From a virus: a DNA stretch of 53,290 bases. The position numbers and the translations under genes were made by a program. The DNA is taken from the UHGV virus genome UHGV-0119950, one strand, 5' to 3'. Of this stretch, positions 8,115 to 51,262 are shown in pieces. The notes under the pieces are model-generated. The model was not told the DNA's origin. It saw only the letters and a program-made list of their open reading frames with translations, and searched no databases. Every line of letters starts with the position of its first letter. Within the stretch, counting starts at the first letter, position 1.

Positions 8115-8164
8115 CTCATCACCATCTTCATACGCCTGGTGCGGCTACTTCGTGGGCGTCCTGC

Positions 8165-8526: not shown

Positions 8527-8528
8527 GG

Positions 8529-9781: not shown

Positions 9782-9875
9782 ATATATTAACTCACAATTT
9801 GCAAGTGAGCCACCTTCATCTTATAGAGATAATCCGAAAAGCATGATGGTTAGCAATTCATGTCCTTATCAACTC

Positions 9876-10031
9876 TCAAAGGGACATACCGATAACGGCA
9901 TTAACCACACTTGACGCCATAAACACGCCGCCAACGATGAAGCTGGCCTGGTTCTTCCTGGTAGCGCCAAGAGTCAACAGAACCACTGAAAGGGCAAAGA
10001 AAGGTATCGCGATTATGCTGAACGTGTTCAT
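9876..10031 (-). CDS. small hydrophobic membrane protein, 51 aa
   Basis: Not in ORF track. Translation MNTFSIIAIPFFALSVVLLTLGATRKNQASFIVGGVFMASSVVNAVIGMSL; two hydrophobic stretches; directly downstream of repressor gene on same strand. Confidence 0.4.
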   Translation of the reverse strand: MNTFSIIAIPFFALSVVLLTLGATRKNQASFIVGGVFMASSVVNAVIGMSL

Positions 10032-10043
10032 GTTGACCTCAAG

Positions 10044-10463
10044 TTATTGCGATTCTCCGTCACCCTTAATCCGTCGCCCCATGTACTTCGCGTACAGCTC
10101 GTCGAGCTCCTTCAGTCGCAGAGATACGATCCGCAACATGTTCTGCTGCTCTTCTTCCGGCAGCTGGCGATAGAGTTCCAGCAGGCGCTGCTCGTCAGGC
10201 TTCATACCATCTTTCTCGCCGACATCTTCCCCGAGCAGCCAGGCGACCGAAACACCAACAGCATCGGCTATAGCCAGTGCTGATTTTTTGCTAATAACGC
10301 CTTTTTTAAACCAGCTATTGACCGCCTGAGGCGAGACTCCGGCTATTCGCGCCATATCTGCTTTGGTAATGCCTCTGGCATAGACCTCGTTGAGTCGCGC
10401 TATCAATGCTTTGTTGGGTTCTTCTTTTCTCATTCTCTCATTGTAAATGGTTAGTTTACACAC
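10044..10463 (-). CDS. prophage repressor, CI-like HTH, no S24 peptidase domain
   Basis: 139 aa; HTH (ITKADMARIAGVSPQAVNSWFKKG); divergent from cro-like gene; too short for a LexA-like cleavage domain. Confidence 0.75.
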   Translation of the reverse strand: MCKLTIYNERMRKEEPNKALIARLNEVYARGITKADMARIAGVSPQAVNSWFKKGVISKKSALAIADAVGVSVAWLLGEDVGEKDGMKPDEQRLLELYRQLPEEEQQNMLRIVSLRLKELDELYAKYMGRRIKGDGESQ

Positions 10464-10534
10464 TCAATAAATTGAATATTGATTGAAATATAAATCTGTG
10501 GTTTACTTTCTTCGTTGATAGTTAGGAGAAGAAA
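10464..10534. promoter_or_regulatory. OR-like operator/promoter region between repressor and cro-like gene
   Basis: 71-bp divergent intergenic region with AT-rich repeated TTGATTGAAAT/ATTGAATATTG motifs. Confidence 0.45.
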
Positions 10535-16825: not shown

Positions 16826-17082
16826 TGGATCAACTTCTGCAATACGCCACCAATCGGATTATAGAACTGGAAAACCTTCTGCTGGTGAATGTTGAGGAAA
16901 CGGTCTGGCCAGCAGAGGTTCAGATGGTTTTTAGTCAAATCGAAAACGCCGGGAGTTTCCCGGCGCACCACCAGCGCCGATTGCAGCACCACATCAACAG
17001 AATGTGGCTGGAAAAAATACCGGTTACTTCGATTATTGCCGCAGCGCGCTCGCTGGCAGATGCAATGGAGAAATACGCGTGA
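16822..17082 (+). CDS. hypothetical protein
   Basis: 86 aa ORF. Confidence 0.4.
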   Translation: MMDQLLQYATNRIIELENLLLVNVEETVWPAEVQMVFSQIENAGSFPAHHQRRLQHHINRMWLEKIPVTSIIAAARSLADAMEKYA

Positions 17083-19160
17083 GAAATAGCGAAATCATTG
17101 TTGATAATTTTGCTGGTGGCGGCGGTGCTTCCACTGGAATTGAGATGGCGACTGGCCGCAGCGTGGACATTGCGATTAACCACGATCCGAATGCCGTTGC
17201 GATGCACACGACAAACCACCCCAATACACTGCATTATTGCGAATCTGTCTACGATGTCAGGCCGAAGGTAGCGACCGCCGGGCGTCCGGTGGCGCTGGCG
17301 TGGTTCTCGCCGGATTGCCGTCACTTTTCAAAAGCCAAAGGTGCGAAGCCGGTAGAGAAAGCGATCCGGGGTCTGGCCTGGGTAGTTCTGCGCTGGGGGC
17401 TGGATGTAAAACCCCGGGTGATGAAACTGGAGAACGTCGAAGAATTTAAAACGTGGGGCCCTTTGCTCGCTGGTGAAATGAGGCCAGACCCGGCCCGTGC
17501 TGGAGAAAATTTTGAGGCGTTCATTGGTATGCTGACTACTGGCATCCGGGCTGACCACCCGGCACTGGCGGAGTGCTGTGAATTTCTGGGTATTTCTCTT
17601 GATAGTGAAGACGCCGCGAGGCTGATCAAAGGGCTGGGCTACATCGTCGAGTATCGCGAGTTGCGCGCCTGCGACTACGGTGCGCCGACGATCCGCAAGC
17701 GATTCTTTATGATTATGCGTTGTGACGGGAAACCGATTGTGTGGCCTGAGCCAACACATGGCGATCCGAAATCACCGGCTGTCCAGGCTGGTAAGCTGGC
17801 ACCGTGGCGCACAGCTGCGGAGTGCATAGACTGGACAATTCCGGCTCCATCGATATTCGATCGCAAAAAGCCGCTGGCAGAAAATACCCTTAAGCGCATC
17901 GCGCGCGGCATCCAGCGATTTGTTATCGACAGTGCGTCGCCGTTTATCGTGAAGTGCAACCACACCAGCAGCCGTTCAAGTTATGATTGTTTCCGTGGGC
18001 AGCCACTGGAAGAACCCCTGCAAACGATCACGAAAAAGCATGGTTACGCCGTCGCAGTACCACATCTGACGAAGTTCCGTACCGGCGCAACCGGGCAGGA
18101 AGTCACCGAACCTGTACCGACTGTAACAGCTGGCACGTCGGCGCGCCCGGGTGGGAATGGTCATGCGCTTGGTATCGTTGAAGCTGCGCTGACTCCGTTC
18201 CTGGCTGGTAATGGCGGCAGTGAGTACCAGGCTAAGCCGCGCCCGCTGGATAAACCAGCTCACACTATACTGAAACAATCCCGGGCATGTGTCGTTGCGC
18301 CGGTTATCGCCCGACAGTTTGGCGCCAGCACCGGCCACCGCGCAGATGAGCCGAACGCGACTATTACCGCTGGTGGCGGCGGTAAATCGCAACTTGTTAC
18401 ATCGACACTGATCCAGATGGGATACGGGGAAAGGCCAGGTCAGGAACCTCGCGTTCTCCAGATCGAAAAACCGTTAGGGACAGTAACCGCTGGTGGAAAC
18501 AAGTTCGCCGTGGCCAGCGCATTTCTGGCGAAGCACTACGGCGGCAACTATACGGGACCGGGCGTCGGGCTGGATGAGCCGACTCACTCAGTTACGACGG
18601 TTGATCATCATGCGGTTGTTGCGGCACATCTAATGGTGAACAACACCGGGCATCCTGGCGGCTCCGTGGACTCTCCAGCGCATACCGTTACAACAGGAAA
18701 TCACCATGCTGTAGTGACTTCTCATCTTGTGCATTTGCGAGGGTTCTGCAAAGACGGTCAAAAAATGGATCAGCCGGTGCCAACGATTACCGCCGGAGGC
18801 CAGCATGTTGGGGAGGTGAAAACCACTCTGGCAGTTGAGCACTACAACGAACAGCGCGCGCAACAGACGTTGGCGTTCCTGCGTGAATATTGCGGCGAAG
18901 ATTGTACCGGGCTGGTGGATATCGACGGGATCACATATCGTATTGTTGATATCGGAATGCGCATGCTGCAACCGCATGAGCTTTACCGCGCGCAGGGCTT
19001 CCCGGACTGGTACATCATCGATCGGGATTATCGCGGCGTGAAGTATGCAAAGGATAAGCAGGTTGCCCGCTGCGGTAATGCTGTGCCGCCACCGTTCGCC
19101 GAGGCTCTGGTAAGGGCCAATTTACCCGAACTTTGCCAGCCGAAAGAAATGGCAGCGTAA
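17079..19160 (+). CDS. DNA (cytosine-5) methyltransferase with eight tandem repeats in the variable region
   Basis: Motif I DNFAGGGG, motif IV SPDCRHFS (Cys present, PDC not PCQ), motif VI LENVEEF, motif IX QGFPDWY, motif X CGNAV; GTG at 17079 with GGAG upstream chosen over track start 17004. Confidence 0.8.
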   Translation: MRNSEIIVDNFAGGGGASTGIEMATGRSVDIAINHDPNAVAMHTTNHPNTLHYCESVYDVRPKVATAGRPVALAWFSPDCRHFSKAKGAKPVEKAIRGLAWVVLRWGLDVKPRVMKLENVEEFKTWGPLLAGEMRPDPARAGENFEAFIGMLTTGIRADHPALAECCEFLGISLDSEDAARLIKGLGYIVEYRELRACDYGAPTIRKRFFMIMRCDGKPIVWPEPTHGDPKSPAVQAGKLAPWRTAAECIDWTIPAPSIFDRKKPLAENTLKRIARGIQRFVIDSASPFIVKCNHTSSRSSYDCFRGQPLEEPLQTITKKHGYAVAVPHLTKFRTGATGQEVTEPVPTVTAGTSARPGGNGHALGIVEAALTPFLAGNGGSEYQAKPRPLDKPAHTILKQSRACVVAPVIARQFGASTGHRADEPNATITAGGGGKSQLVTSTLIQMGYGERPGQEPRVLQIEKPLGTVTAGGNKFAVASAFLAKHYGGNYTGPGVGLDEPTHSVTTVDHHAVVAAHLMVNNTGHPGGSVDSPAHTVTTGNHHAVVTSHLVHLRGFCKDGQKMDQPVPTITAGGQHVGEVKTTLAVEHYNEQRAQQTLAFLREYCGEDCTGLVDIDGITYRIVDIGMRMLQPHELYRAQGFPDWYIIDRDYRGVKYAKDKQVARCGNAVPPPFAEALVRANLPELCQPKEMAA

Positions 19161-22468: not shown

Positions 22469-22600
22469 AGCCTGAGGTTATTGAGTCTCTTCGCTGGCGC
22501 TGGCTGCGTCTCCGCATTTATCGCTACCGGGGATCTTTTCCTGTGGCATACCGCATCCTTCGCAATTACATCCGCATTGAAGAAAAACGGGAGCATCAAA

Positions 22601-23407
22601 ATGAATCTTGAGTCCTTACCAAAATATTTTTCGCCTAAATCCATGATGCTCGGCGCTGTTCCATGCGGAATTTCAGCAGACACGCTGACTATTACTGACG
22701 TAATGGCATCCCTCGGGCTACTTACTGCAAAAGCAGCGGTGGGTATTGAATTGTATCTGGCAAAAGCCGGGGTTTTATCCTCAGACAATATCATTGCCTA
22801 CATTAAGAAGCTGGCAGAGCAACGAGCAGAACGCCACGGAAAACTCAAAAAAATGGAAGAGAATGAGCGCTCAAAATTTCTCGATACTATGGCGCGTTAT
22901 GTGTTTCGCGATTATTCCCTCAGTGCGGCCAGTCTGATCACTTGCCCGGATTGCCACGGACAGAAGTTTATTGATGCTGAGGTTTTCACGAACAAGGTTA
23001 CTTTCCCGGATGGTAAGCCACCAAAATGGGTAAAAGATACGAAAGGTATTTCTCCGTCAGACTGGGAGGTGTGGAAATCAGTACGTGAGCAAGTGCGCGT
23101 CGTGTGTAAGACGTGCGATGGTAAAGGCCATGTGAAAAACGAATGCCGTTGCCGGGGGCGCGGAGAAATTCTCGATAAGAAAAAATCAGAGTTGCAGGGC
23201 GTTCCGGTTTATAAAAAATGCCCGAGATGCAAGGGAAGAGGTCACCCACGCCTCAAAGATACCGAGATTTTTAAAGCGCTGGGAATAACGGAAATGGTAT
23301 GGCGGTACAACTATAAACAGTTTTTCGATCGGCTGGTGGAGCATTGCCATATTGAGGAATCGTATGCAGAAAAGGTTCTGGGAAACGTGACCCGATGGCC
23401 AGCATAA
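22601..23407 (+). CDS. late antiterminator Q (phage 82 type)
   Basis: From internal ATG MNLESLPKYFSPKS; resembles Q82 as I recall it (MRLESVAKFHSPKS, CRDCHGTG, CGRCKG, QCHKEESIAD...NAVTR); located just before lysis genes. Confidence 0.7.
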   Translation: MNLESLPKYFSPKSMMLGAVPCGISADTLTITDVMASLGLLTAKAAVGIELYLAKAGVLSSDNIIAYIKKLAEQRAERHGKLKKMEENERSKFLDTMARYVFRDYSLSAASLITCPDCHGQKFIDAEVFTNKVTFPDGKPPKWVKDTKGISPSDWEVWKSVREQVRVVCKTCDGKGHVKNECRCRGRGEILDKKKSELQGVPVYKKCPRCKGRGHPRLKDTEIFKALGITEMVWRYNYKQFFDRLVEHCHIEESYAEKVLGNVTRWPA

Positions 23408-23992: not shown

Positions 23993-24385
23993 ATGTCCGA
24001 TCCTGTAACTGGCACCGGTGCTGTACTCAGCGGAGGTCTGTTGGGCTCCGTTGCATATGGCGTATTTACTCACACCGATTTTGGCGTCGTTTTTGGCGCG
24101 TTTGGCGGCGCCGTATTTTACGTCGCAACTGCGGCTAACCTGACCCGAATTCGCCTTACCGCATATTTTTTGACGTCCTTTATCGTTGGGGTGCTCGGCG
24201 CGGGGTTAGTGGGTTCGAAACTTTCAGCCTGGACGGGGTACAGTGACCGGCCACTTGATGCGCTTGGCGCCGTGATTATGTCTGCCATCACCATAAAAGT
24301 GCTGACGTTCATCAACGGCCAGGATCTGAACAGTTTGTTCGGTATGCTTTCGCGGCTTCGCGGAGGAGGGGGAAATGGTAAGTGA
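23993..24385 (+). CDS. holin
   Basis: 130 aa, Gly-rich with several predicted transmembrane stretches; first gene of lysis cassette. Confidence 0.6.
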   Translation: MSDPVTGTGAVLSGGLLGSVAYGVFTHTDFGVVFGAFGGAVFYVATAANLTRIRLTAYFLTSFIVGVLGAGLVGSKLSAWTGYSDRPLDALGAVIMSAITIKVLTFINGQDLNSLFGMLSRLRGGGGNGK

Positions 24386-24653
24386 CCCGACAGCACTGCT
24401 TAACTCGATCACCTGCGCGGTGATAGTTCTTGTTCTGATGTTCTACCAGCGTCGGGGTGCACGTCACCGGCCTTTCATTTCGTTTCTGGCATATCTGACC
24501 GTGCTGGTTTACGCCGCCATTCCTTTGAAGTTCATTTTCGGCCTGTATCACGATTCAAACTGGTTTGTGGTACTGGTGAATATTCTGATTTGCGTTGCAG
24601 TTCTCTGGGTTCGTGGAAACGTGGCTCGACTTATTGACATGCTGCATAAATAA
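24375..24653 (+). CDS. holin-associated membrane protein (second holin or antiholin)
   Basis: 92 aa with hydrophobic segments; overlaps holin stop. Confidence 0.45.
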   Translation: MVSDPTALLNSITCAVIVLVLMFYQRRGARHRPFISFLAYLTVLVYAAIPLKFIFGLYHDSNWFVVLVNILICVAVLWVRGNVARLIDMLHK

Positions 24654-24789
24654 AAGACGAGTTGCAGCGACATCACTACAACCCGCCAAAGGTCACCAAA
24701 AGGTATTAGGATAAATCTTAATTCTAATTATGTTTTAAATCACTTCTTAAAGCATCCTTAAATCTGGTAGTTCCTGTACGGATAATTTT

Positions 24790-25419
24790 ATGAATCAACA
24801 ACAATTTCAGCACGCGGTTGGTGTAAGCGCCGGATTAGCTGTGCGCTGGTTTTCGCACATCGATGCAGCAATGAAAGAATTTGGCATCACTGCGCCGCTC
24901 GACCAGGCGATGTTCATCGCGCAGATGGGGCATGAGTCCGGCGGGTATGAAAAGCTGGTGGAAAGTCTGAACTACGCAGCCGATCGTCTTGTTCCCGTAT
25001 TCGGCAAGCACCGTATCACGGCACAGCAGGCTGCCGCACTCGGCAGAACGGCAACGCAACCAGCTAATCAGAAAGCGATAGGCAATCTGGTTTACGGTGG
25101 TGAATGGGGTAAAAAGAACCTGGGCAATCAGGTCGCTGGTGACGGCTGGAAATATCGTGGGCGCGGGCTGAAGCAAATCACAGGGTTAAGCAACTATCGC
25201 AAATGCGGCATGGCGCTAAAACTGGATCTGGTCACGCAGCCGGAATTGCTGGAACAGGACGAAAATGCAGCGCGTTCCGCAGCGTGGTTCTTTGCCACCA
25301 GCGGATGCCTTGTGTATTCCGGCGATGTGGAACGTATCACGATCATCATCAATGGCGGTAAAAACGGTCTTGATGACCGCCGTCACCGTTTCAATCTGGC
25401 AAAAGCCGTGCTGGTGTGA
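24790..25419 (+). CDS. endolysin, glycoside hydrolase family 19 type
   Basis: 209 aa; FIAQMGHESGGY motif typical of GH19 phage lysins; between holin and spanin genes. Confidence 0.75.
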   Translation: MNQQQFQHAVGVSAGLAVRWFSHIDAAMKEFGITAPLDQAMFIAQMGHESGGYEKLVESLNYAADRLVPVFGKHRITAQQAAALGRTATQPANQKAIGNLVYGGEWGKKNLGNQVAGDGWKYRGRGLKQITGLSNYRKCGMALKLDLVTQPELLEQDENAARSAAWFFATSGCLVYSGDVERITIIINGGKNGLDDRRHRFNLAKAVLV

Positions 25420-34359: not shown

Positions 34360-35820
34360 ATGGATGTCATTGTTGGTGGGGTTCCTTATGTCCGCGCCGA
34401 TAGCGTTTCCCATAATAAAATTGGAATCGCGATAACCACTCACAACAGGCCGGATGTCCTCGCAAAATCACTTGAGCAACATCGAAAATATTTACCTCCC
34501 GGTGCGGTCGTGTTCGTCATTGATGATGGTTCAAATCCGCCAGCAACAGCTCCGGGTTGGTGTAATTTAATCCGGCACGATAATTCAAAAGGCATTGTTG
34601 CTTCGAAGAACGCCAGTCTTACAGCGCTGATGGATGCCGGGTGCGAGCATCTTTTTTTATGGGACGATGACGCATGGCCGATTGCCGATGGCTGGCATCT
34701 TCCGTATATCGAATCGCCTGAGCCGCATCTTGCGTATCAGTTCCTCGACCTTGCCGGGCCGCGAAAACTTAACGATCTCGCTGTGCTTTATAGCGACGAT
34801 AAGCATGTGGCGTACACCGGACAGCGCGGCGTGATGCTGTATTACCACCGCAGCGCTATCGAGCGTGTCGGTGGTTTCGACTGGATTTACGGGCGCGGCA
34901 TGTACGAACACAGCGACCTTGCCCTGCGCATCCATAACGCCGGGCTGACGACGTGGGTTTATGCCGACGTCACCAGCTCAGATAAGTTGATTCATTCGCT
35001 CGATGAGCATGAAGCTGTAGACCGTTCGGTGCCAACGGCAGACAGGAAAGCGCTGGTGGAACGTAATGTAAAAATCCACAACGAGCGGCGCGATACGGGG
35101 TATACCGGCTATGTCGAATACCGGCGCCAGCGCGACGTTGTGATCACAACATTACTGACGAGCCAACCGGACCCGCAGCGCGGTACGAAAATGACGGCCT
35201 CGCCTGACATGCTGGCTAAATGGGCGGCTTCGCTCCGGCAGTGTGGACGTATCGCGCTGGTGGATGAATTACTAACGGCCCCGGCAGATGTTGAGCTATG
35301 TCGCGTTCCTGACGTGAAGATGAATGTCTACTTTCGTCGCTGGTTGCACATCTGGCAGCACCTGCGAGATCACCCTGAATACCGGTTCGTCTGGTGTACC
35401 GATGGTACCGATGTCGAAATGCTTCGCGCGCCATGGGAAGAAATGGAGGCCGGGAAGCTCTACGTTGGCTCGGAGCCGAAAACTTACGCTGACGCCTGGG
35501 CAAAACAGAATCATCCTGAACGCATCTATCAGGAATTCATCGAACAGCATCGCAACGATGTGATGCTTAACGCCGGGCTTCTGGGTGGCACGCGCGCTGA
35601 TGTGATGGCGTTCGCTCACGGCATCATCCGTCTTTACTACCGGATCGAGAGTTATCGGTTCTGGAAGACAGAGCAGGCTGATGCAGCGGTGGGCGATATG
35701 ATCGCATTTGGCATTGTCGCGCAGTCATTTGGCGATCGCATTGTCACCGGCCCGCGCATCCACACAGTGTTTAAGTCTGAAGGTATCGGTAAGGAGTACG
35801 CCTGGTTTAAACATAAATAA
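34360..35820 (+). CDS. two-domain glycosyltransferase (N-terminal GT-A/GT2-like)
   Basis: 486 aa; GIAITTHNRPDVLAKSL...VFVIDDGSNP and LWDDDAWP (DxD) match GT2 signatures; C-terminal half not identified. Confidence 0.7.
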   Translation: MDVIVGGVPYVRADSVSHNKIGIAITTHNRPDVLAKSLEQHRKYLPPGAVVFVIDDGSNPPATAPGWCNLIRHDNSKGIVASKNASLTALMDAGCEHLFLWDDDAWPIADGWHLPYIESPEPHLAYQFLDLAGPRKLNDLAVLYSDDKHVAYTGQRGVMLYYHRSAIERVGGFDWIYGRGMYEHSDLALRIHNAGLTTWVYADVTSSDKLIHSLDEHEAVDRSVPTADRKALVERNVKIHNERRDTGYTGYVEYRRQRDVVITTLLTSQPDPQRGTKMTASPDMLAKWAASLRQCGRIALVDELLTAPADVELCRVPDVKMNVYFRRWLHIWQHLRDHPEYRFVWCTDGTDVEMLRAPWEEMEAGKLYVGSEPKTYADAWAKQNHPERIYQEFIEQHRNDVMLNAGLLGGTRADVMAFAHGIIRLYYRIESYRFWKTEQADAAVGDMIAFGIVAQSFGDRIVTGPRIHTVFKSEGIGKEYAWFKHK

Positions 35821-40582: not shown

Positions 40583-43462
40583 ATGTCAGAACAGACATCC
40601 CGCCTCGCCGTCATTATTGACAGCACCGGCGCAGAAAAAAATGCTGAAAGCCTGACCAGCGCCCTTCACGGGCTTACCGAGTGGGGGCAGAAAGCAGCGG
40701 CCAGCGCCGGAAAAGTAACGAAGGCGACCGAAGAAGAATCCGCTGCTTTATCGGAACTACTGGACCGCATTGATCCGGTTAACGCTGCGCTGAACAAACT
40801 GGATAAACAACAGCAACAACTGGCGAAATTTAAGTCGAAAGGCATGCTGGACGATGAGACCTTTGATGTCTATTCGAAAAAAATCGAAGAGGCCCGCAAT
40901 CGTCTCTCTGGGTTTTCAGAGCAATTGAAAAATACTGGCATGTCAGCAAAGCAAACCGCTTTTGCGATGCGCATGCTGCCCGCTCAGATGACCGATATCG
41001 TCGTGGGTCTGTCTACCGGGCAAAGTCCGTTCATGGTGCTGATGCAGCAGGGCGGTCAGTTAAAAGATATGTTCGGCGGCATCGGCCCGGCGATTAAAGG
41101 CGTTAGCTCCTATGTGATGGGCCTGATCAATCCTTTCACGCTGGCGGCTGCTGCGGTCGGCGTGCTGGGTGTGGCGTACTACAAAGGCACGCAGGAACAG
41201 GACGCTTTCAATAAATCACTCATCCTGACGGGTAACCAGGTAGGGAAAACATCGGGTCAACTGGCGGACATTGCCGCGCGTGCTGGTGTAGCGGCGAACT
41301 CTACCACTGGCAAAGCAGCATCGACGTTAAATTTACTGGTGGAATCTGGAAAGGTTGCCGGTGACTCGCTTGAGCGCGTGACCACTGCCGTTGTTAAAAC
41401 GAGTGAGGCCACTGGTATTGCGACCGATAAACTGGTGGACGATTTCAACAAAATTGCCGCCGATCCGGTTGAGGCAATCACTAAACTGAACGATCAGTAT
41501 CACTTCCTTACGCTGGCAACTTACAACCAGATTAAGGCCCTCCAGGATGAAGGGAATCAGCAGGAAGCGGCGCGCGTTGCTACTGATGCTTACGCCACCA
41601 CCATGCAGCAGCGTGCCGCAGATATTCAGGATAACCTCGGTTATCTCGAAAAGGCATGGAACGGACTCACCGGCGCAGCAAAAGGCGCATGGGATGCAAT
41701 GCTGGGCGTTGGGCGCGAGCAGTCTCTTGAACAACGCTTGGCTGATGCGACTAAAAAGGCAAATGATGCGCGCGGCAAAGCCGTGGGTAATATTTTCGGT
41801 GTGCCAGGGTGGCAAACTGAAGCAGCAGCAGCGGCTAATTTTCTGCAAAGTGCTATCGACCTGCAAGGCGACCTTACAAAAGTTGTCGCGGCTGGCAGAG
41901 AAGAGCAGGATAAGGCAATTAAAATACAGCAGGAAGCTGATCGCGTTAACCAGCAGTTCCTGTCGAATGCTGATAAGCGAAACAAGGCGATTCAGCAGCA
42001 GAAGAAATTCCTTGATGCCGGGGCCATCAGTGCAGATCAGTACGCGAAAAATATCGCGCGCATCAATGAAATGTACAAAGACCCTAAATCGCCAACAGCA
42101 GCGAAGGGAAAAGCATATAGCGAAGATGCAGCGACACGACTGCTGGACCAGTTAAACCAGCAGACATCCGCAATGCAGTCCCAGCTTGACGCCAGCGATA
42201 AGCTCACCAGCGCCACTCAGGCGCGAGTGAAGTTTGAACAGCAGATAGCTGACCTCAAATCGAAAACGCAGCTCACCGCCGATCAGAAATCGCTTTTGTC
42301 CCGCTCTGAAGAAATTCTTCAGGCCTACAAACGACAGGAGGCGTTACAAAACTCCGTTAAAACGCTCGACGATTATCGGAAAATGCAGGAGCAGGTTAAA
42401 GCGAAGGATGAGCAGCAGAATGATTTGCTTCGCGAACGGCTTGCGCTGCTGGAAAAAGCAAAAGCCACAGGGAAGCTGGCGCCGGGGGAATACGAGCAAA
42501 CCCGATCTGATATTTACAAAAACACCCCAGCGGAGTTGCCTTCTTCAGTGAAGAGTGTGGTTGGCAACCTGTCACCGACTGGCGGCCAGTTATCCGGCAC
42601 GTTCGGCGGTATGCAACAGCAGTACATGCAACTCGATCAGGCGCAACAGCAGTTACAAACGTGGTTGCAGGCGCAGGAAGCAGCATATGCCCAGGCTGCG
42701 CAAATCACCACGGAAGGCGAAGCGCGCATGACAGCAATCCGCCAGCAGGCGGCGCAAGCCAACCAGGTTATTGAATCCCAGAAAAACGAAATCATCACCA
42801 GTGCGACGCAAACCATGATCGACAGTGGTTTGCAGATTCTGGCGACTGGTTTCGGGGAGCAATCCGGGATTTATAAAGCTGCGTTCGCTGCCAGCAAGGC
42901 ATTCGCTATTGCACAGTCTCTGGTTTCGATCCAGCAGGGGATAGCGATGGCGGCGGCTAACCCGTTCCCGTACAACATCGCTGCGATGGCATCCGTTGCA
43001 GCGGCGACGGCGAGCATCGTTTCTAACATTGCAGCCGTAGCTGATGTTGGTTTTGCTGTCGGTGGTTTTACGGGCCCGGGCGGAAAATACCAGCCCGCCG
43101 GGATAGTGCATAAAGGCGAGTATGTTTTTGACCAGGCTGCAACCAACCGGATCGGCGTCTCGAACCTTGAGGCGCTGCGCAATGGTGGTTCTCTGGATGC
43201 AACGCTGAGCAAGCCCGGTTTCGGTACGGGGGCGCAGAACGTCAATAACAACAGCAATGCTATGACCCTGAACGCCCCCATCAACCAGAACTTCAATATT
43301 CAGCAGGGAGTAAGCCCAGACCAGATGAATCTGTCGCTGGCGCAGACTCAGAAACAGGCTACCAGCGATGCATTAGATCAGGTCGCCAATCAGATCGTGA
43401 AAGGTAACGGGAAGGTGGGTAACGCAATGCGAGGAACGTACACCGGAAGGAGAATGACCTGA
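40583..43462 (+). CDS. tail tape measure protein
   Basis: 959 aa, long helical Q/A-rich protein, Gly-rich C-terminal region; canonical position. Confidence 0.85.
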
Positions 43463-43926
43463 TGGCTGAAAAATACTATCCTCACGATTATCTCCCTATG
43501 CCGCTTCAGGACGGTTATGCATTTCAGCCAGTCAGTCCGTTAAAGCGCACCGAAATAACCACCGGCCGCGCCCGTCAGCGCCGCGCGTTTATTTCGACAC
43601 CGACACAGGCAAATGTGCAGTGGTTTTTCGAAAACGATGCTCAGGCTCAGCTTTTTGAGGGCTGGTATCACGAAACCATCACTGACGGCGCCGACTGGTT
43701 TTTTATGCGGTTGCAAACGCCGCTGGGCGTTGAACTCTACAAATGTCGGTTTACGGACATCTATCAGGGGCCGACGCTGGTCGCCCCGATTTACTGGCAG
43801 TTCTCCGCGACGCTTGAGCTGTGGACTCGACCCGTCCTCGGCGATGGCTGGGCTGAGTTCCCGGATTACATCATCAACAGCAGCATCATCGATATTGCAC
43901 TTAACAGGGAGTGGCCGGAAGCATGA
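43462..43926 (+). CDS. minor tail protein (gpM-like)
   Basis: 154 aa right after tape measure gene; weak pattern resemblance to lambda M. Confidence 0.45.
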   Translation: MAEKYYPHDYLPMPLQDGYAFQPVSPLKRTEITTGRARQRRAFISTPTQANVQWFFENDAQAQLFEGWYHETITDGADWFFMRLQTPLGVELYKCRFTDIYQGPTLVAPIYWQFSATLELWTRPVLGDGWAEFPDYIINSSIIDIALNREWPEA

Positions 43927-44411
43927 CCAGTCCGACTTTAAAACGACTGTACGCCTCTTCCGGTGAAGAGGTCATTATCAAAACTTTGCAGATCAACATC
44001 GGTGATGATGTCATGTATCTCTGCGATGGCTACGACAATATAACAGCGACGACGGAAACTGGTGAAGAGGTCACATTCATCGCCAGCGCCATCGATGTTG
44101 CGCTACCGGCGCGGAACAGTGACGGCACGCAGGACTTGCAGTTTGCTGTCTCAAACATCAAAGGAGAAGCATCCACATCCGTGCGTAGCGCGCTGGAAAA
44201 TCTACGTGGCGCCACGGTGACCTACCGACAATATACATCCGATGATTTAGCTGCCCCCGCAGAACGTCCATACACGCTAACTGTGAAAAATGGGTACTGG
44301 ACCGCGACGCAGGCGCAAATTATCGCTGGATATATGAACGTGCTGGATACTGGATGGCCCCGCTATAGCTACACACTCCCGTTCTATCCGGGCTTGCGTT
44401 ACATGAGTTAA
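43911..44411 (+). CDS. minor tail protein (gpL-like position)
   Basis: 166 aa ORF; position only. Confidence 0.4.
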   Translation: MAGSMTSPTLKRLYASSGEEVIIKTLQINIGDDVMYLCDGYDNITATTETGEEVTFIASAIDVALPARNSDGTQDLQFAVSNIKGEASTSVRSALENLRGATVTYRQYTSDDLAAPAERPYTLTVKNGYWTATQAQIIAGYMNVLDTGWPRYSYTLPFYPGLRYMS

Positions 44412-44469
44412 TGTTCAGCCATAAATTACTTGATAAGATAAGGTTCTTCTTATTGACAGGGATAGAAAA

Positions 44470-44982
44470 GTGAAACGATTTTTGCTGGTTTCTGCCGTAA
44501 TTTTACTGGCCGGATGTTCGGCTAAATACAATACGAACAATATTCAGAGCAACACTGAGCAGTTAGTCAAAGATGCTCCAGTTGCTATTTCTATGCCATC
44601 TGATGGGGTATATGAAACCCGCACATATGCTGGCTCTGGAAATTCGACAGCGACTGCATTAAAAGCTGCTTTTTTGCGACATTCAGATAACGTAGCGATT
44701 TACGCTGATTGTGAAGATGTTACTTGTCTGAAAAATAATCATACAATCCATCATGGATACTACGTTGTTCCTCAGATATTGCATTGGGAGGACAGGGCTA
44801 CTGAGTGGTCAGGAATTCCAGATAAAATTGAAGTGAAAATTACAATTTATAATGCAGAATCCAACAATCGGATTGCCTCAACGATTATTAGCGGGAAAAG
44901 TAAGTGGGCAACATTTGGTGGTGATCATCCGCAAGACTTGTTGCCAGAGCCAGTAAACTCGTACATCTCCAGCCTGTATTAA
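44470..44982 (+). CDS. lipoprotein moron inside the tail module
   Basis: GTG start; signal peptide MKRFLLVSAVILLAGCS with lipobox LAGC; AT-rich; own terminator downstream. Confidence 0.6.
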   Translation: MKRFLLVSAVILLAGCSAKYNTNNIQSNTEQLVKDAPVAISMPSDGVYETRTYAGSGNSTATALKAAFLRHSDNVAIYADCEDVTCLKNNHTIHHGYYVVPQILHWEDRATEWSGIPDKIEVKITIYNAESNNRIASTIISGKSKWATFGGDHPQDLLPEPVNSYISSLY

Positions 44983-45004
44983 ACCGTCAGTAAACTACAT
45001 TTCA

Positions 45005-45029
45005 AACCCCGTATAAACGGGGTTTTTTA
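45005..45029 (+). terminator. rho-independent terminator after lipoprotein gene
   Basis: AACCCCGTATAAACGGGGTT hairpin followed by TTTTTAT. Confidence 0.6.
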
Positions 45030-45051
45030 TTGCCTGAAATTCGGAGGCTTA

Positions 45052-45432
45052 ATGTTCAATCAAGATAAATACCTTTCGGTCAGATGGCTGAAGGGCGGTC
45101 GCGCTTACCCTGAACTTGACTGTTTCGGCATTGTGAATGAGGTGCGTCGCGATCTGGGGCTTCATGAGTGGCCGGATTTCGCCGGAGTGACGAAAGATAG
45201 TGGAGGGCTTAATCGAGAAGCGAGGAAACTGATGCTTTCCCTACAACGCTGCGAGCCATGTGAAGGTGCGGGTGTTGCCTGCTATTCAGGCTCAACTGTT
45301 ACGCATGTCGGCGTTGTCGTGGTGCTTAATGGCCGTCTGCATGTGGCCGAATGCAACCCTAAATCCAACGTTTCTTTTACGCCGGTGGCGCAGTTTGTTC
45401 GCCGCTTCGTTAAAGTGGAGTTCTGGAAGTGA
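45052..45432 (+). CDS. tail protein with NlpC/P60-like Cys/His pattern (gpK-like position)
   Basis: 126 aa; LDCFGIV and THVGVV resemble C40 peptidase Cys and His contexts. Confidence 0.45.
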   Translation: MFNQDKYLSVRWLKGGRAYPELDCFGIVNEVRRDLGLHEWPDFAGVTKDSGGLNREARKLMLSLQRCEPCEGAGVACYSGSTVTHVGVVVVLNGRLHVAECNPKSNVSFTPVAQFVRRFVKVEFWK

Positions 45433-48146
45433 CCATCAGAATTTATCCTTCCCGGTTACCCGGCGAGCCGCTGGAAACGCATGAACATGGTGCGGTGACT
45501 ATTCATCAGTGGATGGCGCGGAATGTTGAAAATTACCGCGCTGACATGAAGCATCCGATCGCCATTGAAGTGGACGGCGTGAATATCCCGGCTGCTGCAT
45601 GGTTTGATTATGCGATCAGCCCGAAAAGTGATGTGCGCATTTATCCGGTCCCTCATGGCGCCGTTGCGCTGGCGTGGATTGCCGTTGCTGTTTCGGTCGC
45701 ATCTGTTGCTTATGCGCTGTTCTTTGCGCCTGGCGCATCAGATCCCGGTGGTTTCTCTTCGTCGACAGGCGATTCACTGGACGTTAACCCGGCAAAAGCG
45801 AACCGTGCAAAGCTGGGTGATCCAATTCGCGAGTTGTTCGGACGCCGCCGAATTTACCCCGATTACGTAGTGCAACCGGTAACCCGCTTCAGCCCGGACG
45901 ATCCGACAGTGATGACCGTTGAAATGTTCGTTGCTCTGGGATTCGGACAATTTTCATTCGGCGAAGGGGATATGCGCGTCGGCGCCACGCCAGTTTCATC
46001 GCTTGGTGATGGTTTCGCATACACCGTTTTTCAGCCGGGCCAGAATGTGGCTGGTGATCGCCGTAGTGAAAACTGGTTTAACTCTACCGAGGTTGGCGGG
46101 ACGTCATCGGGTGCCGGGCTGGATATGGCCCAGACCGCACCGGATACGGATGATGTGTTAGCGCAGTCACTGACGGTGTCGGGAAGCACAATCACGTTTA
46201 ACGGATTAAGCGCTGATGATGATACTGCAACAAACGAGCTGCCTGATTCGTGGATTGCTGGCGCAACGGTTGAGCTAATCGTACCCGATCAGTTTGTTGT
46301 TACCAATGATGGCGCATACAGCCGCATTACCAGTGACAATCTGGCGGAAATAGCCCCTTACGTCGGAATGCCGGTAACGCTCTGGTACAACAGCGTCGAC
46401 TACAGTCTGTTTATCGCTTCGTATACGCCGCATGCAGACGCGACAGAGGAAGAAGAGGAAGTCACCGCGTCGATAACGCTGGCTTATGAGAGTGAAACCG
46501 GCGCGCCTTTTACGGGTATTCCTGAGGGGTATATCAGGCTTTCCGTTTCTCACGCTGGGTATCAGTACAAAATTTTCGATGTGGACGGCACCAGTGTAAC
46601 TCTTCAACGCTTGATTGATGGTGTTGTCGATAACACATGGCCGGGTTTCGTGGCGCGCACCGTGCTTGATTTTGAGGCATCTGGCGTTAACCAGAACGAC
46701 TCCTGGATGGGCCCGTTTCTGGCATGCCCGGATAATGAAACCATCGACATGTTTGAAGTGAATTTCTTCTTCCCGAATGGCATTTGCGGATACGACAAAA
46801 AAGGGAGAAAACAAAACAGAACGGTTCGCTGGGAAGTTCAGTACCGCGTTTATGGCTCTGGTTCGGGATGGATGAGCAAAACCGGTTCGTATAACACAAA
46901 AAATATTAATGGCCTTGGTTTCACTGAGCGCATCACGCTGAGTTCTCCCGGCCTTGTTGAAGTGCGGTGCCGACGCACTAACGAACAGGGGCAGGATAAC
47001 AGCCGCGATAATATGTACTGGCAATCATTGCGTGGCCGCCTGCTGACCAGACCGTCATCGTACGCTGGCGTAACGACTATGGGGGTCACGGTGGAAACCG
47101 GCGGCAAGCTGGCGGCGCAGTCCGATCGCCGGGTGAACGTGGTAGCCACAAGGATTTACGACACTGGCGCGGCGCGCAGCATATCCGGCGCGCTGTACCA
47201 CGTTGGTAACTCGTTGGGGCTGGATATGGACACCGACGCCATTAATGCGCTGGAAAGCGCGTACTGGACGCCTGACAATGAGTTTTTTGACTTCGAGACG
47301 ACCGATAGTACATCTGCGCTGGAGGTTTTACAGAAGATCGCCAACGCCGGGAAAAGCTATTTTCTGCTGGCAGACGGGCTTGCCTCGGTTGCGCGCGAAG
47401 GCGTTAAGCCCTGGTCGGGGGTTATCAGTCCGCATGAGATGACCGAGGATCTGCAAACCGCGTTTGTGGCTCCTTCTGACGACGACTATGACGGCGTGGA
47501 TGTTACGTATATCAACGGAACGACATGGGCGGAGGAAACGGTACAGTGCCGGACACCGGATAATCCAACGCCCGTAAAAATCGAAGACTATACGCTTGAT
47601 GGCGTGCTAGACCGGGACCGGGCATATCAGATCGGCATGCGGCGGCTGATTAAGTACCTACAGCAACGGCTGACGCATACGACATTAACCGAACTGGACG
47701 CCCTTTGCTATAACGTCGGCGACCGCATAGTGCTGACAGACGATATTCCTGGCAATAAAACCATTTCCTGTCTGGTTGATGAAATGACAACCGAAAATGC
47801 GCTGACAACATTCACGGTAACCGAGCCATTGGATTGGAGTTATGAAAACCCGCGAGTGATCATCCGATTTCAGGACGGGACCGCATCATCTCTTCTTACG
47901 GCAATCAGGGCTGGTGATTATCAGGTGACGGTGCGATACCTGAATGAATTTGCTGAAATCGTCCTCAATGATCCGGCTATTGAGCCACCACGCCTTATTT
48001 TTTGCGACTCTTCGCGCGTTGGCTATAACGCCATTATCTCTGAGATCGCGCCTCAATCTGATGGCACATGCCAGATAACGGCGAAACAGTATAAACCCAG
48101 CTTCTACGATTACGACAATGCCACTTATCCCGGCAACGTCGTATAA
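45429..48146 (+). CDS. tail tip / host specificity protein (gpI-like N-terminus fused to gpJ-like body)
   Basis: 905 aa; N-terminal region with hydrophobic segment as in lambda gpI; large size; followed by terminator and tailspike gene. Confidence 0.65.
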   Translation: MTIRIYPSRLPGEPLETHEHGAVTIHQWMARNVENYRADMKHPIAIEVDGVNIPAAAWFDYAISPKSDVRIYPVPHGAVALAWIAVAVSVASVAYALFFAPGASDPGGFSSSTGDSLDVNPAKANRAKLGDPIRELFGRRRIYPDYVVQPVTRFSPDDPTVMTVEMFVALGFGQFSFGEGDMRVGATPVSSLGDGFAYTVFQPGQNVAGDRRSENWFNSTEVGGTSSGAGLDMAQTAPDTDDVLAQSLTVSGSTITFNGLSADDDTATNELPDSWIAGATVELIVPDQFVVTNDGAYSRITSDNLAEIAPYVGMPVTLWYNSVDYSLFIASYTPHADATEEEEEVTASITLAYESETGAPFTGIPEGYIRLSVSHAGYQYKIFDVDGTSVTLQRLIDGVVDNTWPGFVARTVLDFEASGVNQNDSWMGPFLACPDNETIDMFEVNFFFPNGICGYDKKGRKQNRTVRWEVQYRVYGSGSGWMSKTGSYNTKNINGLGFTERITLSSPGLVEVRCRRTNEQGQDNSRDNMYWQSLRGRLLTRPSSYAGVTTMGVTVETGGKLAAQSDRRVNVVATRIYDTGAARSISGALYHVGNSLGLDMDTDAINALESAYWTPDNEFFDFETTDSTSALEVLQKIANAGKSYFLLADGLASVAREGVKPWSGVISPHEMTEDLQTAFVAPSDDDYDGVDVTYINGTTWAEETVQCRTPDNPTPVKIEDYTLDGVLDRDRAYQIGMRRLIKYLQQRLTHTTLTELDALCYNVGDRIVLTDDIPGNKTISCLVDEMTTENALTTFTVTEPLDWSYENPRVIIRFQDGTASSLLTAIRAGDYQVTVRYLNEFAEIVLNDPAIEPPRLIFCDSSRVGYNAIISEIAPQSDGTCQITAKQYKPSFYDYDNATYPGNVV

Positions 48147-48203: not shown

Positions 48204-50165
48204 ATGACGACTTACAACACCGGCAATCCGCTGGGGTCTGCTGCTGCAAAAGATTTGTACGATAACGCCCAGAACCTTGATCACCTTTCAAATGACCAGG
48301 AAAATGAGCTATGGCCTGATCGTTTTGGTAAAAATCGCCTTACATGGCACGGAATGGAAGAGCGTTATAAAACAGCGCTCGCAAACCTCGGTTTAAATCC
48401 TGTCGGGACATTTCAGGGCGGGGCGGTTATTAATTCCGCCGGTGACATCATCCAGGATGAAACAACAGGCGCATGGTATCGCTGGGATGATCTCACGACC
48501 CTGCCGAAAACCGTTCCATCTGGTTCTACTCCAGATTCATCCGGCGGCACAGGTGTCGGAAAATGGCTGGCCGTAGATGTCAGCGATGTGTTGAGAAAAC
48601 AACTTGCTGAAGAAGGAAGTCAGGTTCTCATTTCTGGTGAAACCGCTGACGATGTGGCTCTTGCTTCAAAAACGGCTAAACTTTTATCACAGTATTCACA
48701 TGTTCGTAGTTATTCTGATGATAGCGAAAAAATACTTAATATCTTTGATAATGAAAATTGCTCTCTCGAAGGTGGAGTGTACTACTTAAATGATTCCTTC
48801 GACTTCATAGGTAATAAAAATATTAGAGTTAATAAAGACACGACAATTAATGTAACCGGAGAAATAGATCAACTATTTAGATTCCTTGGTCATGTGGCAT
48901 GGGATGGGTTAGGTAAGCTTACTATTAATGCAAATCATTTTGACAAGCCTGACAGAACTGAGTCTATTCTTTGCTTTCCAAATTATATCCCAACCCTTAA
49001 TAATATTGATATCCATGGAGCTAACGGGCTTTCTGTTCTGGTCGGAATGCCTAGTTTTGGACCCGGAGCACCTGTTGCACAAGGTATCGGATATATAAAA
49101 AATGTACGTACATTTGATTGTGGAAAGGGGGTGCATGTATATGGTAATGTTAATAAAGATACCACAATTATTACAGAGAATCTTTATACCGATAATTTAA
49201 CTGGTTATCTGAATGGCAATGGAAACGGTGGCGGCGGAAATACTTTTTATCTTTCGTATCATCGCCAGGCTAAAAACATCGGTGGATACTTTGAGCATCA
49301 TCCTGACAGCTATGGATCAAATATCAACAGGAGTCTTTATGGAGCCTACGAGGGTGGATGGTTTCAAGGGGCTGATGGAACTCAGTCGCGGGGCCCAACT
49401 TTTGGTGAGGATCTCGAGTATGGTGCGATATATGGCGGAGGTGTTTCAAGAAATTGTGGCTTTGCTGCAATTTCCGCTGACATCAGAAAATCAGATGGCT
49501 CATATCCGATTTCTAGAGTTTTAATTGACGGGTGGACTGCTATAGAGTGTGGTAGAACTATATATTCTCAGGCGCAAGATCTCAGTTTCGGAAATATTCA
49601 CACAAAGGAATCTAAGTCTGGTGATTTTTTGATAAGGATTAATGGTGCAACTCCTAAATCAGTTAAGCAAACTGGTGTGGTAACAGCGTTTAATGGAACA
49701 TCGTCGACAAAACCTACTCTTATTTGGGCGGATAAGACCACATCTTTGTATCTGATTCCTGAACAGATAGTCTCTGATGATACCGTTAACATTAACGTGC
49801 CTGTAGTAGCTGATAACTCAACATCCACAGGATCGGAAATAAATATAGGAACCCAGTATCCCATTGTTACTCAAGATTATATAATCCCGAACATGCGTAG
49901 AGTAACGGAGGTTGATATGTCTTTAGTTTCATCAGTCATAACACTCAGACTTCCAGCAGCAAATCTAAGCAATATAAAAGGTATGCAGCATAAAATTTAT
50001 GTGAGAGGTGGCAATGGAACAAAAATATTACGAATTACGGTTAATAATGCGGATGGTACAATAAATGGAGCCACCGGATACATTGATTTTACACCACAAG
50101 CAGGATCTGTGCGTGTTATTGATTGCCTGAACAAAGGTTCAGGCAATTACCTTGTAACCACGTAA
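48204..50165 (+). CDS. tailspike / tail fibre protein with AT-rich C-terminal receptor-binding module
   Basis: 653 aa; N-terminal part at backbone GC, C-terminal about 520 aa AT-rich, Asn/Gly/Thr-rich as in beta-helical tailspikes. Confidence 0.65.
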   Translation: MTTYNTGNPLGSAAAKDLYDNAQNLDHLSNDQENELWPDRFGKNRLTWHGMEERYKTALANLGLNPVGTFQGGAVINSAGDIIQDETTGAWYRWDDLTTLPKTVPSGSTPDSSGGTGVGKWLAVDVSDVLRKQLAEEGSQVLISGETADDVALASKTAKLLSQYSHVRSYSDDSEKILNIFDNENCSLEGGVYYLNDSFDFIGNKNIRVNKDTTINVTGEIDQLFRFLGHVAWDGLGKLTINANHFDKPDRTESILCFPNYIPTLNNIDIHGANGLSVLVGMPSFGPGAPVAQGIGYIKNVRTFDCGKGVHVYGNVNKDTTIITENLYTDNLTGYLNGNGNGGGGNTFYLSYHRQAKNIGGYFEHHPDSYGSNINRSLYGAYEGGWFQGADGTQSRGPTFGEDLEYGAIYGGGVSRNCGFAAISADIRKSDGSYPISRVLIDGWTAIECGRTIYSQAQDLSFGNIHTKESKSGDFLIRINGATPKSVKQTGVVTAFNGTSSTKPTLIWADKTTSLYLIPEQIVSDDTVNINVPVVADNSTSTGSEINIGTQYPIVTQDYIIPNMRRVTEVDMSLVSSVITLRLPAANLSNIKGMQHKIYVRGGNGTKILRITVNNADGTINGATGYIDFTPQAGSVRVIDCLNKGSGNYLVTT

Positions 50166-50176
50166 TGCCGATTATT

Positions 50177-51262
50177 TTACGTATTTACGATATTTTTCTT
50201 AACTTTTGCAGCGCGCGGCGCTAAATGCCGCGCCACTTTCCTTGAAGGTTCTTCTACAATGTGGAAAAGTATATGCGAAATGGCGAAACTTACGCCAACA
50301 ATCAACAAAACATTTGAGAATCCAAGTTTAGGATTATAAAATGGCACGGGAAGGTATTTTTTAAGAAGTACAGTTATTACTATTGTATGTACAAGATAAA
50401 GCGAATAAGAAACGTTGCCCATCCAGTCAAGGATTTTATTTAATTTTATCTCTCTTGTTGTTTCGAATATTGAAAGAGAAAGCAAAAGCATAAAAGCATA
50501 AACACCACAATTTAGCAATCCGTGACCGCCATTATATCCAGACATATAGAAGAATATAAATGCAAAAACAGAAATAAAGAGTAACGGCGCTGATATATTT
50601 TTGAAAGAGTGAATTTTTGCATAGTTATAGATCTGATAGATAACCATCCCAGCGACGAACTCAAGTAGCATTGGCGATGCGAACAGTTTTAGCACCCATG
50701 GGGCGCTAGGGTCGTTTAATGTTGAATATCCACTAAGATTAATCTCACCATTATATAGTATTCCCAAAATAGATACTGAAGCAATTATTATTGCAGTGCT
50801 AATATAAAATCTATTCTTCCAGGAAATCGACATCGCAAATGAAAATATGATGTAAAAAATTATCTCATACGTCAGAGTCCAGGCAGTTGATATCACCGAA
50901 TAACCGAACCAAGGGGCTGATTTCTCAAAGTTTAAGTTAATAAAGAAAAGGGCTTTTAGATAATTAATATCTATCGGCTTTGTGAATATTAATGCGCATG
51001 ACACCAGACATATAAAATAAACAGGGTATAATCTAAAAAAACGCTTCACAATAAATGAACGAACAGAGGAGTCCTTTTCTGTTGACAACATGATTACAAA
51101 TCCACTTATCATGAAAAAAAGATCCACTCCTATGTATCCATAGTTAAACAATATGTTACCCAAATTGCTCTGAGCATAAATATTGTTCAATTCTCCACGG
51201 GCATGATATAAGACGACAAGCAAAGCAGCTATTCCACGGAGGTATTGCAAAGAATAAAGCAT
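50177..51262 (-). CDS. acyltransferase family 3 membrane protein (O-antigen acetylase-like)
   Basis: 361 aa, many transmembrane segments; N-terminal LRGIAALLVVLYHA signature; AT-rich; convergent with tailspike. Confidence 0.75.
   Translation of the reverse strand: MLYSLQYLRGIAALLVVLYHARGELNNIYAQSNLGNILFNYGYIGVDLFFMISGFVIMLSTEKDSSVRSFIVKRFFRLYPVYFICLVSCALIFTKPIDINYLKALFFINLNFEKSAPWFGYSVISTAWTLTYEIIFYIIFSFAMSISWKNRFYISTAIIIASVSILGILYNGEINLSGYSTLNDPSAPWVLKLFASPMLLEFVAGMVIYQIYNYAKIHSFKNISAPLLFISVFAFIFFYMSGYNGGHGLLNCGVYAFMLLLSLSIFETTREIKLNKILDWMGNVSYSLYLVHTIVITVLLKKYLPVPFYNPKLGFSNVLLIVGVSFAISHILFHIVEEPSRKVARHLAPRAAKVKKNIVNT

Follow-up and report, generated by a model that had tools for sequence, protein, structure and literature searches.

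The stretch of DNA analyzed here (the window) is the whole 53,290-nucleotide virus genome UHGV-0119950, a complete lambdoid (lambda-like) Citrobacter prophage that encodes RecE/RecT and replication protein O and is flanked by a response-regulator gene and umuDC. Two of its minor tail genes, one of the DUF1833/phrog_396 type upstream and one for a 126-amino acid (aa) product downstream, enclose a segment of 640 bp (positions 44412-45051) with an open reading frame (ORF) for a putative lipoprotein, two genes upstream of the gene for the J-like tip protein. A first-pass annotation had described this segment as a lipoprotein moron with its own terminator, and its product as a candidate superinfection-exclusion lipoprotein, with reference to phi80/N15 cor and T5 llp, which are lipoprotein genes in or near tail genes whose products block the phage's own outer-membrane receptor. 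Our analysis supports the view that the segment 44412-45051 is a self-contained lipoprotein moron inserted between minor tail genes, and its cargo was found to belong to the family DUF4823.

The insertion is evident from comparison with relatives. In 20 of 22 related prophages, which were drawn from species-representative genomes, the same two minor tail genes are separated by 13-17 bp (an approximate measure), as against 640 bp in the window, so that the interruption of the tail gene series described by the first-pass annotation was borne out. The DUF1833 and 126-aa genes are likewise about 10 bp apart in three GenBank relatives, namely Klebsiella phage 5 LV-2017, Flyfo siphovirus Tbat2_3, and Escherichia phage vB_EcoS-733R5. 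The closest empty site was identified in Citrobacter braakii (L026), the upstream genes of which are 93-94% identical to those of the window at the protein level. In its junction, which reads ...TACATGAGCTAAGGAGTTTCAATG..., a spacer of about 9 bp separates the stop and start codons that are 640 bp apart in the window. The AT-rich 170-aa ORF with a signal peptide and an LLAGC lipobox was confirmed at, or within a few bases of, the position first given for it: the GC content is 0.41 in the ORF and 0.40 in the insert, compared with 0.53 in the tail genes on either side and 0.50 in the whole window.

A candidate extended -10 promoter element, TGATAAGAT, lies 39 nt 5' of the start codon of the ORF, without a -35 match, and is present equally far from the start in a diverged phage copy (L047); Enterobacter chromosomal copies (L009 and L045) have the -10-like element TGATAAAAT, also at this distance from the start, and a Serratia copy (L016) has the counterpart TGTTATGAT at -38. 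These candidate elements suggest that the cassette may have its own promoter, which would be used in the lysogen. An AGGGA ribosome-binding site was read directly from the sequence 7 nt 5' of the GTG codon, and the surrounding block ACAGGGATAGAAAAGTG is kept in chromosomal copies. Because the GTG start and the preceding ...GGATAGAAAA are common to the chromosomal homologues, the start of the ORF is correctly placed. At the other end, the strong terminator that had been placed at 45005-45029 was recovered at 45004-45028, with a 9-bp stem (AAACCCCGT/ACGGGGTTT), an ATAA loop, and a T-run. Its RNA fold has a free energy of -13.8 kcal/mol (z = -3.6), and none of 200 shuffled sequences was as stable; a terminator consensus scan was not significant by itself (1 found versus 1.3 expected). 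The stem is conserved, with a varying loop, in L047, in both Enterobacter copies (L009 and L045), and in a prophage with other cargo at the junction (L040). The gene on the chromosome of the Enterobacter cloacae complex is 76% identical to the window at the DNA level from 44453 to 45026, i.e., from the ribosome-binding site through the terminator stem.

In lambdoid phages, Q-modified late transcription reads through internal terminators. As the prophage encodes a Q antiterminator, the moron terminator should not interrupt late expression of the tail genes, and the candidate promoter, ribosome-binding site, terminator, and Q antiterminator together make up a classical moron architecture. The cassette resembles lambda bor and lom and the HK97-type morons in being an extra late-operon gene that is equipped with a terminator and probably also a promoter of its own, and it shares with classical lambdoid morons the deviant base composition, the absence from relatives, and Q-antiterminated read-through. 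It differs from them in carrying another cargo family, and its promoter and expression in the lysogen are predicted only.

The same junction is occupied by other cargo in other prophages. A DUF5658 small membrane protein is encoded there in Pectobacterium odoriferum (L033, 2623-2991), and an HExxH-containing 184-aa ORF matching phrog_36675 is present in Leclercia adecarboxylata (L031, 2239-2793); these different occupants indicate that the junction is a recurrent insertion site. The DUF1833 gene beside the Leclercia ORF is rearranged. In a prophage of a Scandinavium sp. metagenome-assembled genome (MAG), a different lipoprotein (MKRIAIMSVAFALLLAGC..., phrog_7678, no Pfam match) is encoded at L040 2411-3000; the terminator stem and the junction that come after it are those of the window (89% identity over window positions 45003-45149), which suggests that the cargo was swapped while the terminator was retained. 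As a separate observation, Flyfo siphovirus Tbat2_3, which has an empty junction, carries genes for a YafO toxin and an SmpA/OmlA-family lipoprotein just 5' of its phrog_384 tail gene (L018, 681-2090).

Table 1. Positions of the lipoprotein cassette, its signals, and other prophage genes in the window.
Feature	Positions	Strand	Remarks
Whole inserted cassette (moron)	44412-45051	+	640 bp
Candidate extended -10 promoter element	44431-44439	+	39 nt 5' of start codon; no -35 match
Ribosome-binding site AGGGA	44458-44462	+	7 nt 5' of GTG
DUF4823 lipoprotein ORF	44470-44982	+	170 aa, GTG start
Predicted lipidation codon, Cys16	44515-44517	+	mature protein 155 aa
Intrinsic terminator	45004-45028	+	9-bp stem, ATAA loop, T-run
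Terminator stem arms	45004-45012 / 45017-45025		T-run ends at 45028
GGAGG ribosome-binding site of 126-aa tail gene	45043-45047	+	inside right end of insert; read directly
Minor tail gene DUF1833/phrog_396 (upstream flank)	43911-44411	+	Pfam DUF1833 E = 7e-35; phrog_396 minor tail protein E = 5.5e-53
TAA stop of DUF1833 gene	44409-44411		left edge of insert
126-aa minor tail gene phrog_329 (downstream flank)	45052-45432	+	phrog_329 E = 5.7e-13
Integrase	795-2081	minus	
Late-gene antiterminator Q	22481-23407	+	Pfam Antiterm PF03589 E = 3e-49; holins and endolysin next
Lysis cassette	23993-25419		
Tape measure	40583-43462		
phrog_384 protein	43462-43926		
J-like 905-aa protein	45429-48146		
Tailspike	48204-50165		
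Acyl_transf_3 gene	50177-51262	minus	just past tailspike

The product of the ORF begins MKRFLLVSAVILLAGC-SAKY, with a signal peptide over residues 1-15, the lipobox LLAGC, and Ser at position +2 of the mature protein. Cys16 is invariant in both alignments that were made (11 and 38 homologues, phage-borne ones included), and Gly15 shows no variation in the smaller of the two and at least 90% conservation in the larger. A Ser rather than an Asp at position +2 directs lipoproteins through the Lol pathway to the outer membrane. Since residue +2 is Ser here, the protein is predicted to be exported by Sec, lipidated at Cys16, and sorted by Lol to the outer membrane. The remainder of the protein matches Pfam DUF4823 (PF16105) over residues 31-169 and profile positions 2-141 of 141, with a score of 144.7 bits versus a gathering cut-off of 25.9 (E = 2.1e-42). 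Together with a length of about 170 aa and an N-terminal lipoprotein signal, the protein has the two loops of the family, W106-E-D-R-A-T-E-W-S114 and G150-G-D-H-P-Q-D-L-L158, which are invariant or nearly so in both alignments and are kept even in family members of only 40% overall identity. Cys81 and Cys86 are both invariant in the alignment of 38 homologues; some phage-borne homologues lack this pair. The family is large, with 1,689 matches in a database clustered at 90% and, at 50% identity, 742 clusters (threshold for the latter count, E ≤ 0.001), and most members are single-domain proteins of about 170 aa. Among ten longer members, no informative domain fusion was found besides a 235-aa homologue (P0127) with a C-terminal SHOCT domain.

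Searches for related phage proteins gave little. The sole PHROG match of the lipoprotein was phrog_4180, of unknown function (E = 0.0034), with no match to an exclusion-protein or structural PHROG; homology to a structural tail component, which the first-pass annotation had named as evidence that would speak against its proposal, was thus looked for and not found. NCBIfam gave weak, signal-peptide-driven matches only. A tblastn search of the protein against 50,697 GenBank phage records returned no match at E ≤ 1e-3, and near-identical DNA of this region was likewise not found among GenBank phages, in agreement with the earlier remark that the protein is not sequence-matched to Cor or Llp.

The homology and structure searches called for at the outset thus led to DUF4823 and to a fold. 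An AlphaFold2 model built from 38 homologues was confident, with a mean predicted local distance difference test (pLDDT) value of 88.9 and a predicted template-modeling score (pTM) of 0.82, and its best match in the PDB is PelC (three structures, with scores of 15.0, 14.4, and 13.0). PelC was followed by HpaA (10.5), a flagellar basal-body (LPHT) ring protein (9.9), TraT (9.6), CsgG (9.2), PqiC (8.2), the N-terminal domain of TolB (8.1), LpoB (7.5), and LptE (about 7, in a structure of its complex with the LptD barrel), nearly all of which are lipoproteins. PelC, TraT, and PqiC assemble into rings that lie beneath or within the outer membrane (PelC: PMC12141448; TraT: PMC11733297), and by analogy the protein may be part of a periplasm-facing, probably oligomeric and possibly ring-like assembly. 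No sequence match to any PDB chain was obtained at E ≤ 10 with two profiles and one distant member, so that the relationship to PelC is structural only. The BFVD viral fold library yielded a weak LptE-like match (template-modeling score 0.42) and a CsgG; no phage protein of known function in it shares the fold.

The closeness to PelC has limits. PelC is the lipoprotein ring of the Pel exopolysaccharide exporter PelBC, and the likeness lies in the predicted fold and the lipoprotein nature, the ring of the DUF4823 protein being predicted only. Identity in the structural alignments is 6-12%, no pelB or pel genes lie near any phage or chromosomal copy examined, and only DUF4823 has the WEDRATEWS and GGDHPQDLL motifs. 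The PelB barrel is contacted by a flexible, Gly-flanked Asp loop of PelC, the Trp149 of which packs on the lipid anchors (PMC12141448); it is tempting to regard the GGDH loop of DUF4823 as a candidate counterpart of the PelC Asp loop. TraT, the surface-exclusion protein of IncF plasmids, shares the outer-membrane lipoprotein fold and differs in several respects: there is no sequence homology or family-model match, its fold match is much weaker than that of PelC, and it is larger (a 226-residue chain), forms a membrane-inserted decamer, and targets conjugation rather than phages.

The distribution of the gene was analyzed in Citrobacter and beyond. The identical protein is encoded in many Citrobacter assemblies, always in this tail slot, and the prophages around it differ in their tailspikes and in the O-antigen-modification genes downstream. 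In more diverged prophages of the same family, the lipoprotein is 90-98% identical and the flanking genes are 80-87% identical at the aa level. Between window positions 44470-44982 and L047 positions 2559-3071 there are 21 synonymous and 11 non-synonymous differences, which give a ratio of non-synonymous to synonymous divergence (dN/dS) of 0.137, and the phage copies are therefore under purifying selection; the ratio for the flanking tail genes is comparable (0.04-0.11). In the same comparison, the synonymous divergence (dS) of the cassette is 0.21 versus 0.56-1.09 for the flanks. Because of this lower dS, the cassette is either younger than its flanks or has been exchanged among these prophages, and a spread by recombination is suggested.

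The nearest homologues outside Citrobacter (77-80% identity) are stand-alone chromosomal genes with no phage alongside. The gene lies between fliE and yedD in Enterobacter, between a major facilitator superfamily transporter gene and glk in Serratia, and in unrelated neighborhoods in Dickeya and Serratia odorifera. The copy in the Enterobacter cloacae complex is stably positioned, with a dN/dS of 0.09 against the phage copy. In all of the Enterobacterales hosts examined, the GC content of the gene (0.35-0.44) is below that of the neighboring DNA (0.54-0.57). A DNA-level search of 5,426 complete Escherichia coli genomes found no copy, and only one of 72,556 plasmid records, from Vibrio vulnificus, carries the gene. 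In a Methyloglobulus MAG (L042), the gene, one of several small ORFs arrayed next to an integrase fragment, is directly followed by attC-like repeats; the UniRef name of the Dickeya homologue, 'integron cassette protein', is in line with this array. The MAG contig itself (positions 1-10500) has the appearance of an integron-like cassette array, with a 300-nt block that is present three times (at 665, 4780, and 5586). A literature search on integron cassettes, phage defense, and lipoproteins found nothing relevant.

Other temperate phages have also captured the gene. A scan of IMG/VR recovered 17 viral contigs with the family, including five of the Citrobacter type. In five further contigs (L053-L057, 57% identity), which represent an unrelated siphophage, the gene lies between tail-tube/DUF6246 genes and the TMP_3 tape-measure gene. 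In another five (L059-L063, approximately 45% identity), it lies 43-49 bp downstream of, and co-oriented with, the gene for a cI-type repressor that has HTH_3 and Peptidase_S24 domains and is divergent from Cro, O, and NinG. The gene is near another S24 repressor in L064, and the copy in L058 is 44% identical. The lipobox and the two invariant loops are retained in these phage copies, which belong to separate branches of the family. The family is therefore carried in at least three separate phage contexts, i.e., this tail slot, before a tape-measure gene, and behind cI, which suggests selection for the gene in lysogens. Exclusion genes that are expressed from the prophage, such as lambda rexAB, typically lie in the immunity region next to cI. 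In L053, a second ORF (6643-7170) directly follows the lipoprotein gene and encodes 175 aa with an N-terminal signal or transmembrane segment and no Pfam match; this pair may be a two-gene envelope moron.

We tentatively propose that the cassette encodes a prophage-expressed outer-membrane lipoprotein that guards the lysogen at its envelope, most probably by excluding incoming phages. A lysogen-expressed and possibly anti-phage role is suggested because the family has been captured by unrelated temperate phages, including behind cI, because the phage copies are under purifying selection, and because the predicted outer-membrane lipoprotein fold is common to the surface-exclusion protein TraT. 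The proposal is further favored because the same junction holds other envelope proteins (the L040 lipoprotein and the L033 DUF5658 protein) and because the gene has been kept in its slot across a prophage family with flanks as diverged as described above. The best analogy is TraT, a chromosomal outer-membrane lipoprotein that has been repeatedly co-opted by plasmids for surface exclusion (PMC11733297). In the proposed sequence of events, the cassette would have been acquired horizontally by a lambdoid Citrobacter prophage, at the spacer that separates two of its minor tail genes; in the lysogen, transcription would start at its own promoter and end at its own terminator, and during lytic growth Q-modified late transcription would pass the moron terminator. 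The 155-residue PelC-like domain would then be held on the periplasmic face of the outer membrane, where its fold relatives form homo-oligomeric rings or dock onto outer-membrane barrels. The two invariant surface loops would bind a conserved envelope component, and the lysogen would be protected by hindering the entry of other phages, through a block after adsorption or at the crossing of the outer membrane, unlike Cor and Llp and not by blockage of one phage-specific receptor. Superinfection exclusion is a plausible and reasonable hypothesis; of the original interpretation, the lipoprotein moron is sustained by the empty site, the base composition, the terminator, and the extended -10-like element, whereas Cor/Llp-like exclusion is hypothetical.

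Several results weigh against the exclusion of phages by this protein. The majority of the family are strongly conserved chromosomal genes with a stable position (for example, between fliE and yedD in Enterobacter), and a general envelope or physiological role consequently fits at least as well. None of the contexts examined has a conserved gene neighbor, and each chromosomal lineage differs. The candidate promoter matches the consensus in part only, and a consensus scan of the plus strand found no full sigma-70 promoter. The fold likeness to PelC is uninformative as to the binding partner, a search of one library of papers found no publications on DUF4823 or PF16105, and none of the PADLOC defense-protein models matched the protein at E ≤ 1.

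The main competing explanation, which we consider only somewhat less likely and which accounts for the conserved chromosomal copies equally well, is that the gene is a lysogenic-conversion fitness factor unrelated to phages. Lambda Bor and Lom are prophage genes carried for the benefit of the host, and a factor of this kind would alter envelope physiology, for example in stress, serum, or antimicrobial resistance, in outer-membrane homeostasis, or in shielding from secreted hydrolases or contact-dependent toxins. The wide spread of DUF4823 as conserved single chromosomal genes in gammaproteobacteria, as counted above in 50%-identity clusters, is consistent with such a factor, as are the stable position and low dN/dS of the Enterobacter cloacae complex copy, the integron cassette of Methyloglobulus, the motifs that stay fully invariant at 40% overall identity and thereby suggest a universal ligand or target, and the envelope-biogenesis or transport lipoproteins among the fold relatives. 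TraT, too, confers serum resistance, according to one report (PMC9243006). However, the slots behind cI and in tail operons, and the swaps with other envelope proteins, resemble those of known exclusion genes, and the sporadic, AT-rich occurrence in Enterobacterales, with no copy detected at the DNA level in the E. coli genomes, argues that the gene is not a housekeeping one. If the gene had instead been a mobile AT-rich hitch-hiker in a permissive spacer, without any benefit, its mobility in its own right (integron cassette and scattered chromosomal islets) and the tolerance of the spacer for other inserts would be readily understood; this is improbable in view of the purifying selection between phage copies, the retention across a diverged prophage family and many Citrobacter assemblies, and the capture in several unrelated phage contexts.

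Lipoprotein morons of the Cor/Llp type are a textbook route to receptor-level superinfection exclusion, and a block of this type would have the lipoprotein bind and inactivate the periplasmic face of the outer-membrane protein used by the J-like tip, so that superinfection would be prevented and progeny would not be lost to cell debris. According to a recent report, Llp is a small lipoprotein of the inner leaflet of the outer membrane that binds FhuA (10.64898/2026.03.26.714494). Like Cor (phi80/N15/HK022) and Llp (T5), the protein encoded here is a phage-encoded, predicted outer-membrane lipoprotein, with a gene in or beside tail or receptor-binding genes, here two genes 5' of the J-like tip gene, and its fold relatives PelC and LptE dock onto or into outer-membrane barrels. 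We nevertheless consider this type of block unlikely. There is no sequence or fold relationship to Cor or Llp: no Llp chain was among the listed PDB fold matches, nothing comparable was found in BFVD, and Cor and Llp are much smaller, the mature 155-aa protein being about twice as long or more. The identical protein occurs in prophages with differing tailspikes and its relatives are carried by unrelated phages, and the loops are invariant across very different hosts, which argues against co-evolution with one receptor. The homologues, unlike Cor and Llp, are mostly chromosomal, and those of 77-80% identity have no such phage adjoining; because conserved homologues stand alone in diverse gammaproteobacteria, a blocker tailored to the receptor of one phage is not expected. 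A role in the lytic cycle, whether in the tail or virion, in assembly, or as a spanin-like lipoprotein in lysis, is very improbable, although the location in the late tail operon would also provide late transcription. The gene is lacking at this position in 20 of the 22 related prophages and in the three sequenced phages, the closest homologues are non-phage chromosomal genes, no structural PHROG was matched, a lipoprotein signal is incompatible with cytoplasmic tail assembly, and the lysis cassette lies elsewhere. On the strength of the empty sites, chromosomal homologues, lipoprotein signal, and separate lysis cassette, a structural tail or lysis role was rejected as close to refuted.

The architecture of the moron is unsurprising; what is new is its cargo family, the uncharacterized, PelC-like DUF4823, which temperate phages have captured repeatedly and which is also present in an integron. 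If the protein does exclude phages, it would represent a new exclusion family, probably of broad range, with two invariant loops as a structural handle. If it does not, the present data would still offer the first functional lead for a domain found in hundreds of gammaproteobacterial lineages, namely, a mobile, PelC-like, outer-membrane lipoprotein that is selected in lysogens. A more far-reaching and speculative view, which we regard as rather unlikely in its entirety, is that DUF4823 proteins are widespread ring-forming outer-membrane lipoproteins that provide a portable barrier at the envelope, directed against phages and perhaps against further agents whose entry requires passage of the outer membrane. 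In this view, they would be spread by integrons and repeatedly captured by phages as a phage counterpart of TraT, and the WEDRATEWS and GGDHPQDLL loops would engage a universally conserved component of the envelope or of the invader, for example the periplasmic face of an outer-membrane barrel or a cell-wall hydrolase on the tail of an incoming phage.

Some other features of the prophage may be mentioned. The product of the 126-aa gene downstream of the cassette has a weak CHAP/NlpC-P60-like match (CHAP E = 0.027, under the Pfam cut-off). The 3' half of the tailspike gene (48550-50000) is strongly AT-rich, with a GC content of 0.33-0.45, and the Acyl_transf_3 gene on the opposite strand (50177-51262) possibly encodes an O-antigen acetyltransferase; sister prophages have other tailspikes at this site, with Glycos_transf_2/GtrA-type or other acyltransferase genes. 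In the head/morphogenesis region, a 486-aa ORF (34360-35820, plus strand) gives a borderline Glycos_transf_2 match (23.4 bits versus a cut-off of 23.3). A 718-aa ORF (17004-19160, plus strand) has a C-5 cytosine DNA methylase domain at its C-terminal end only, preceded by a large N-terminal part.

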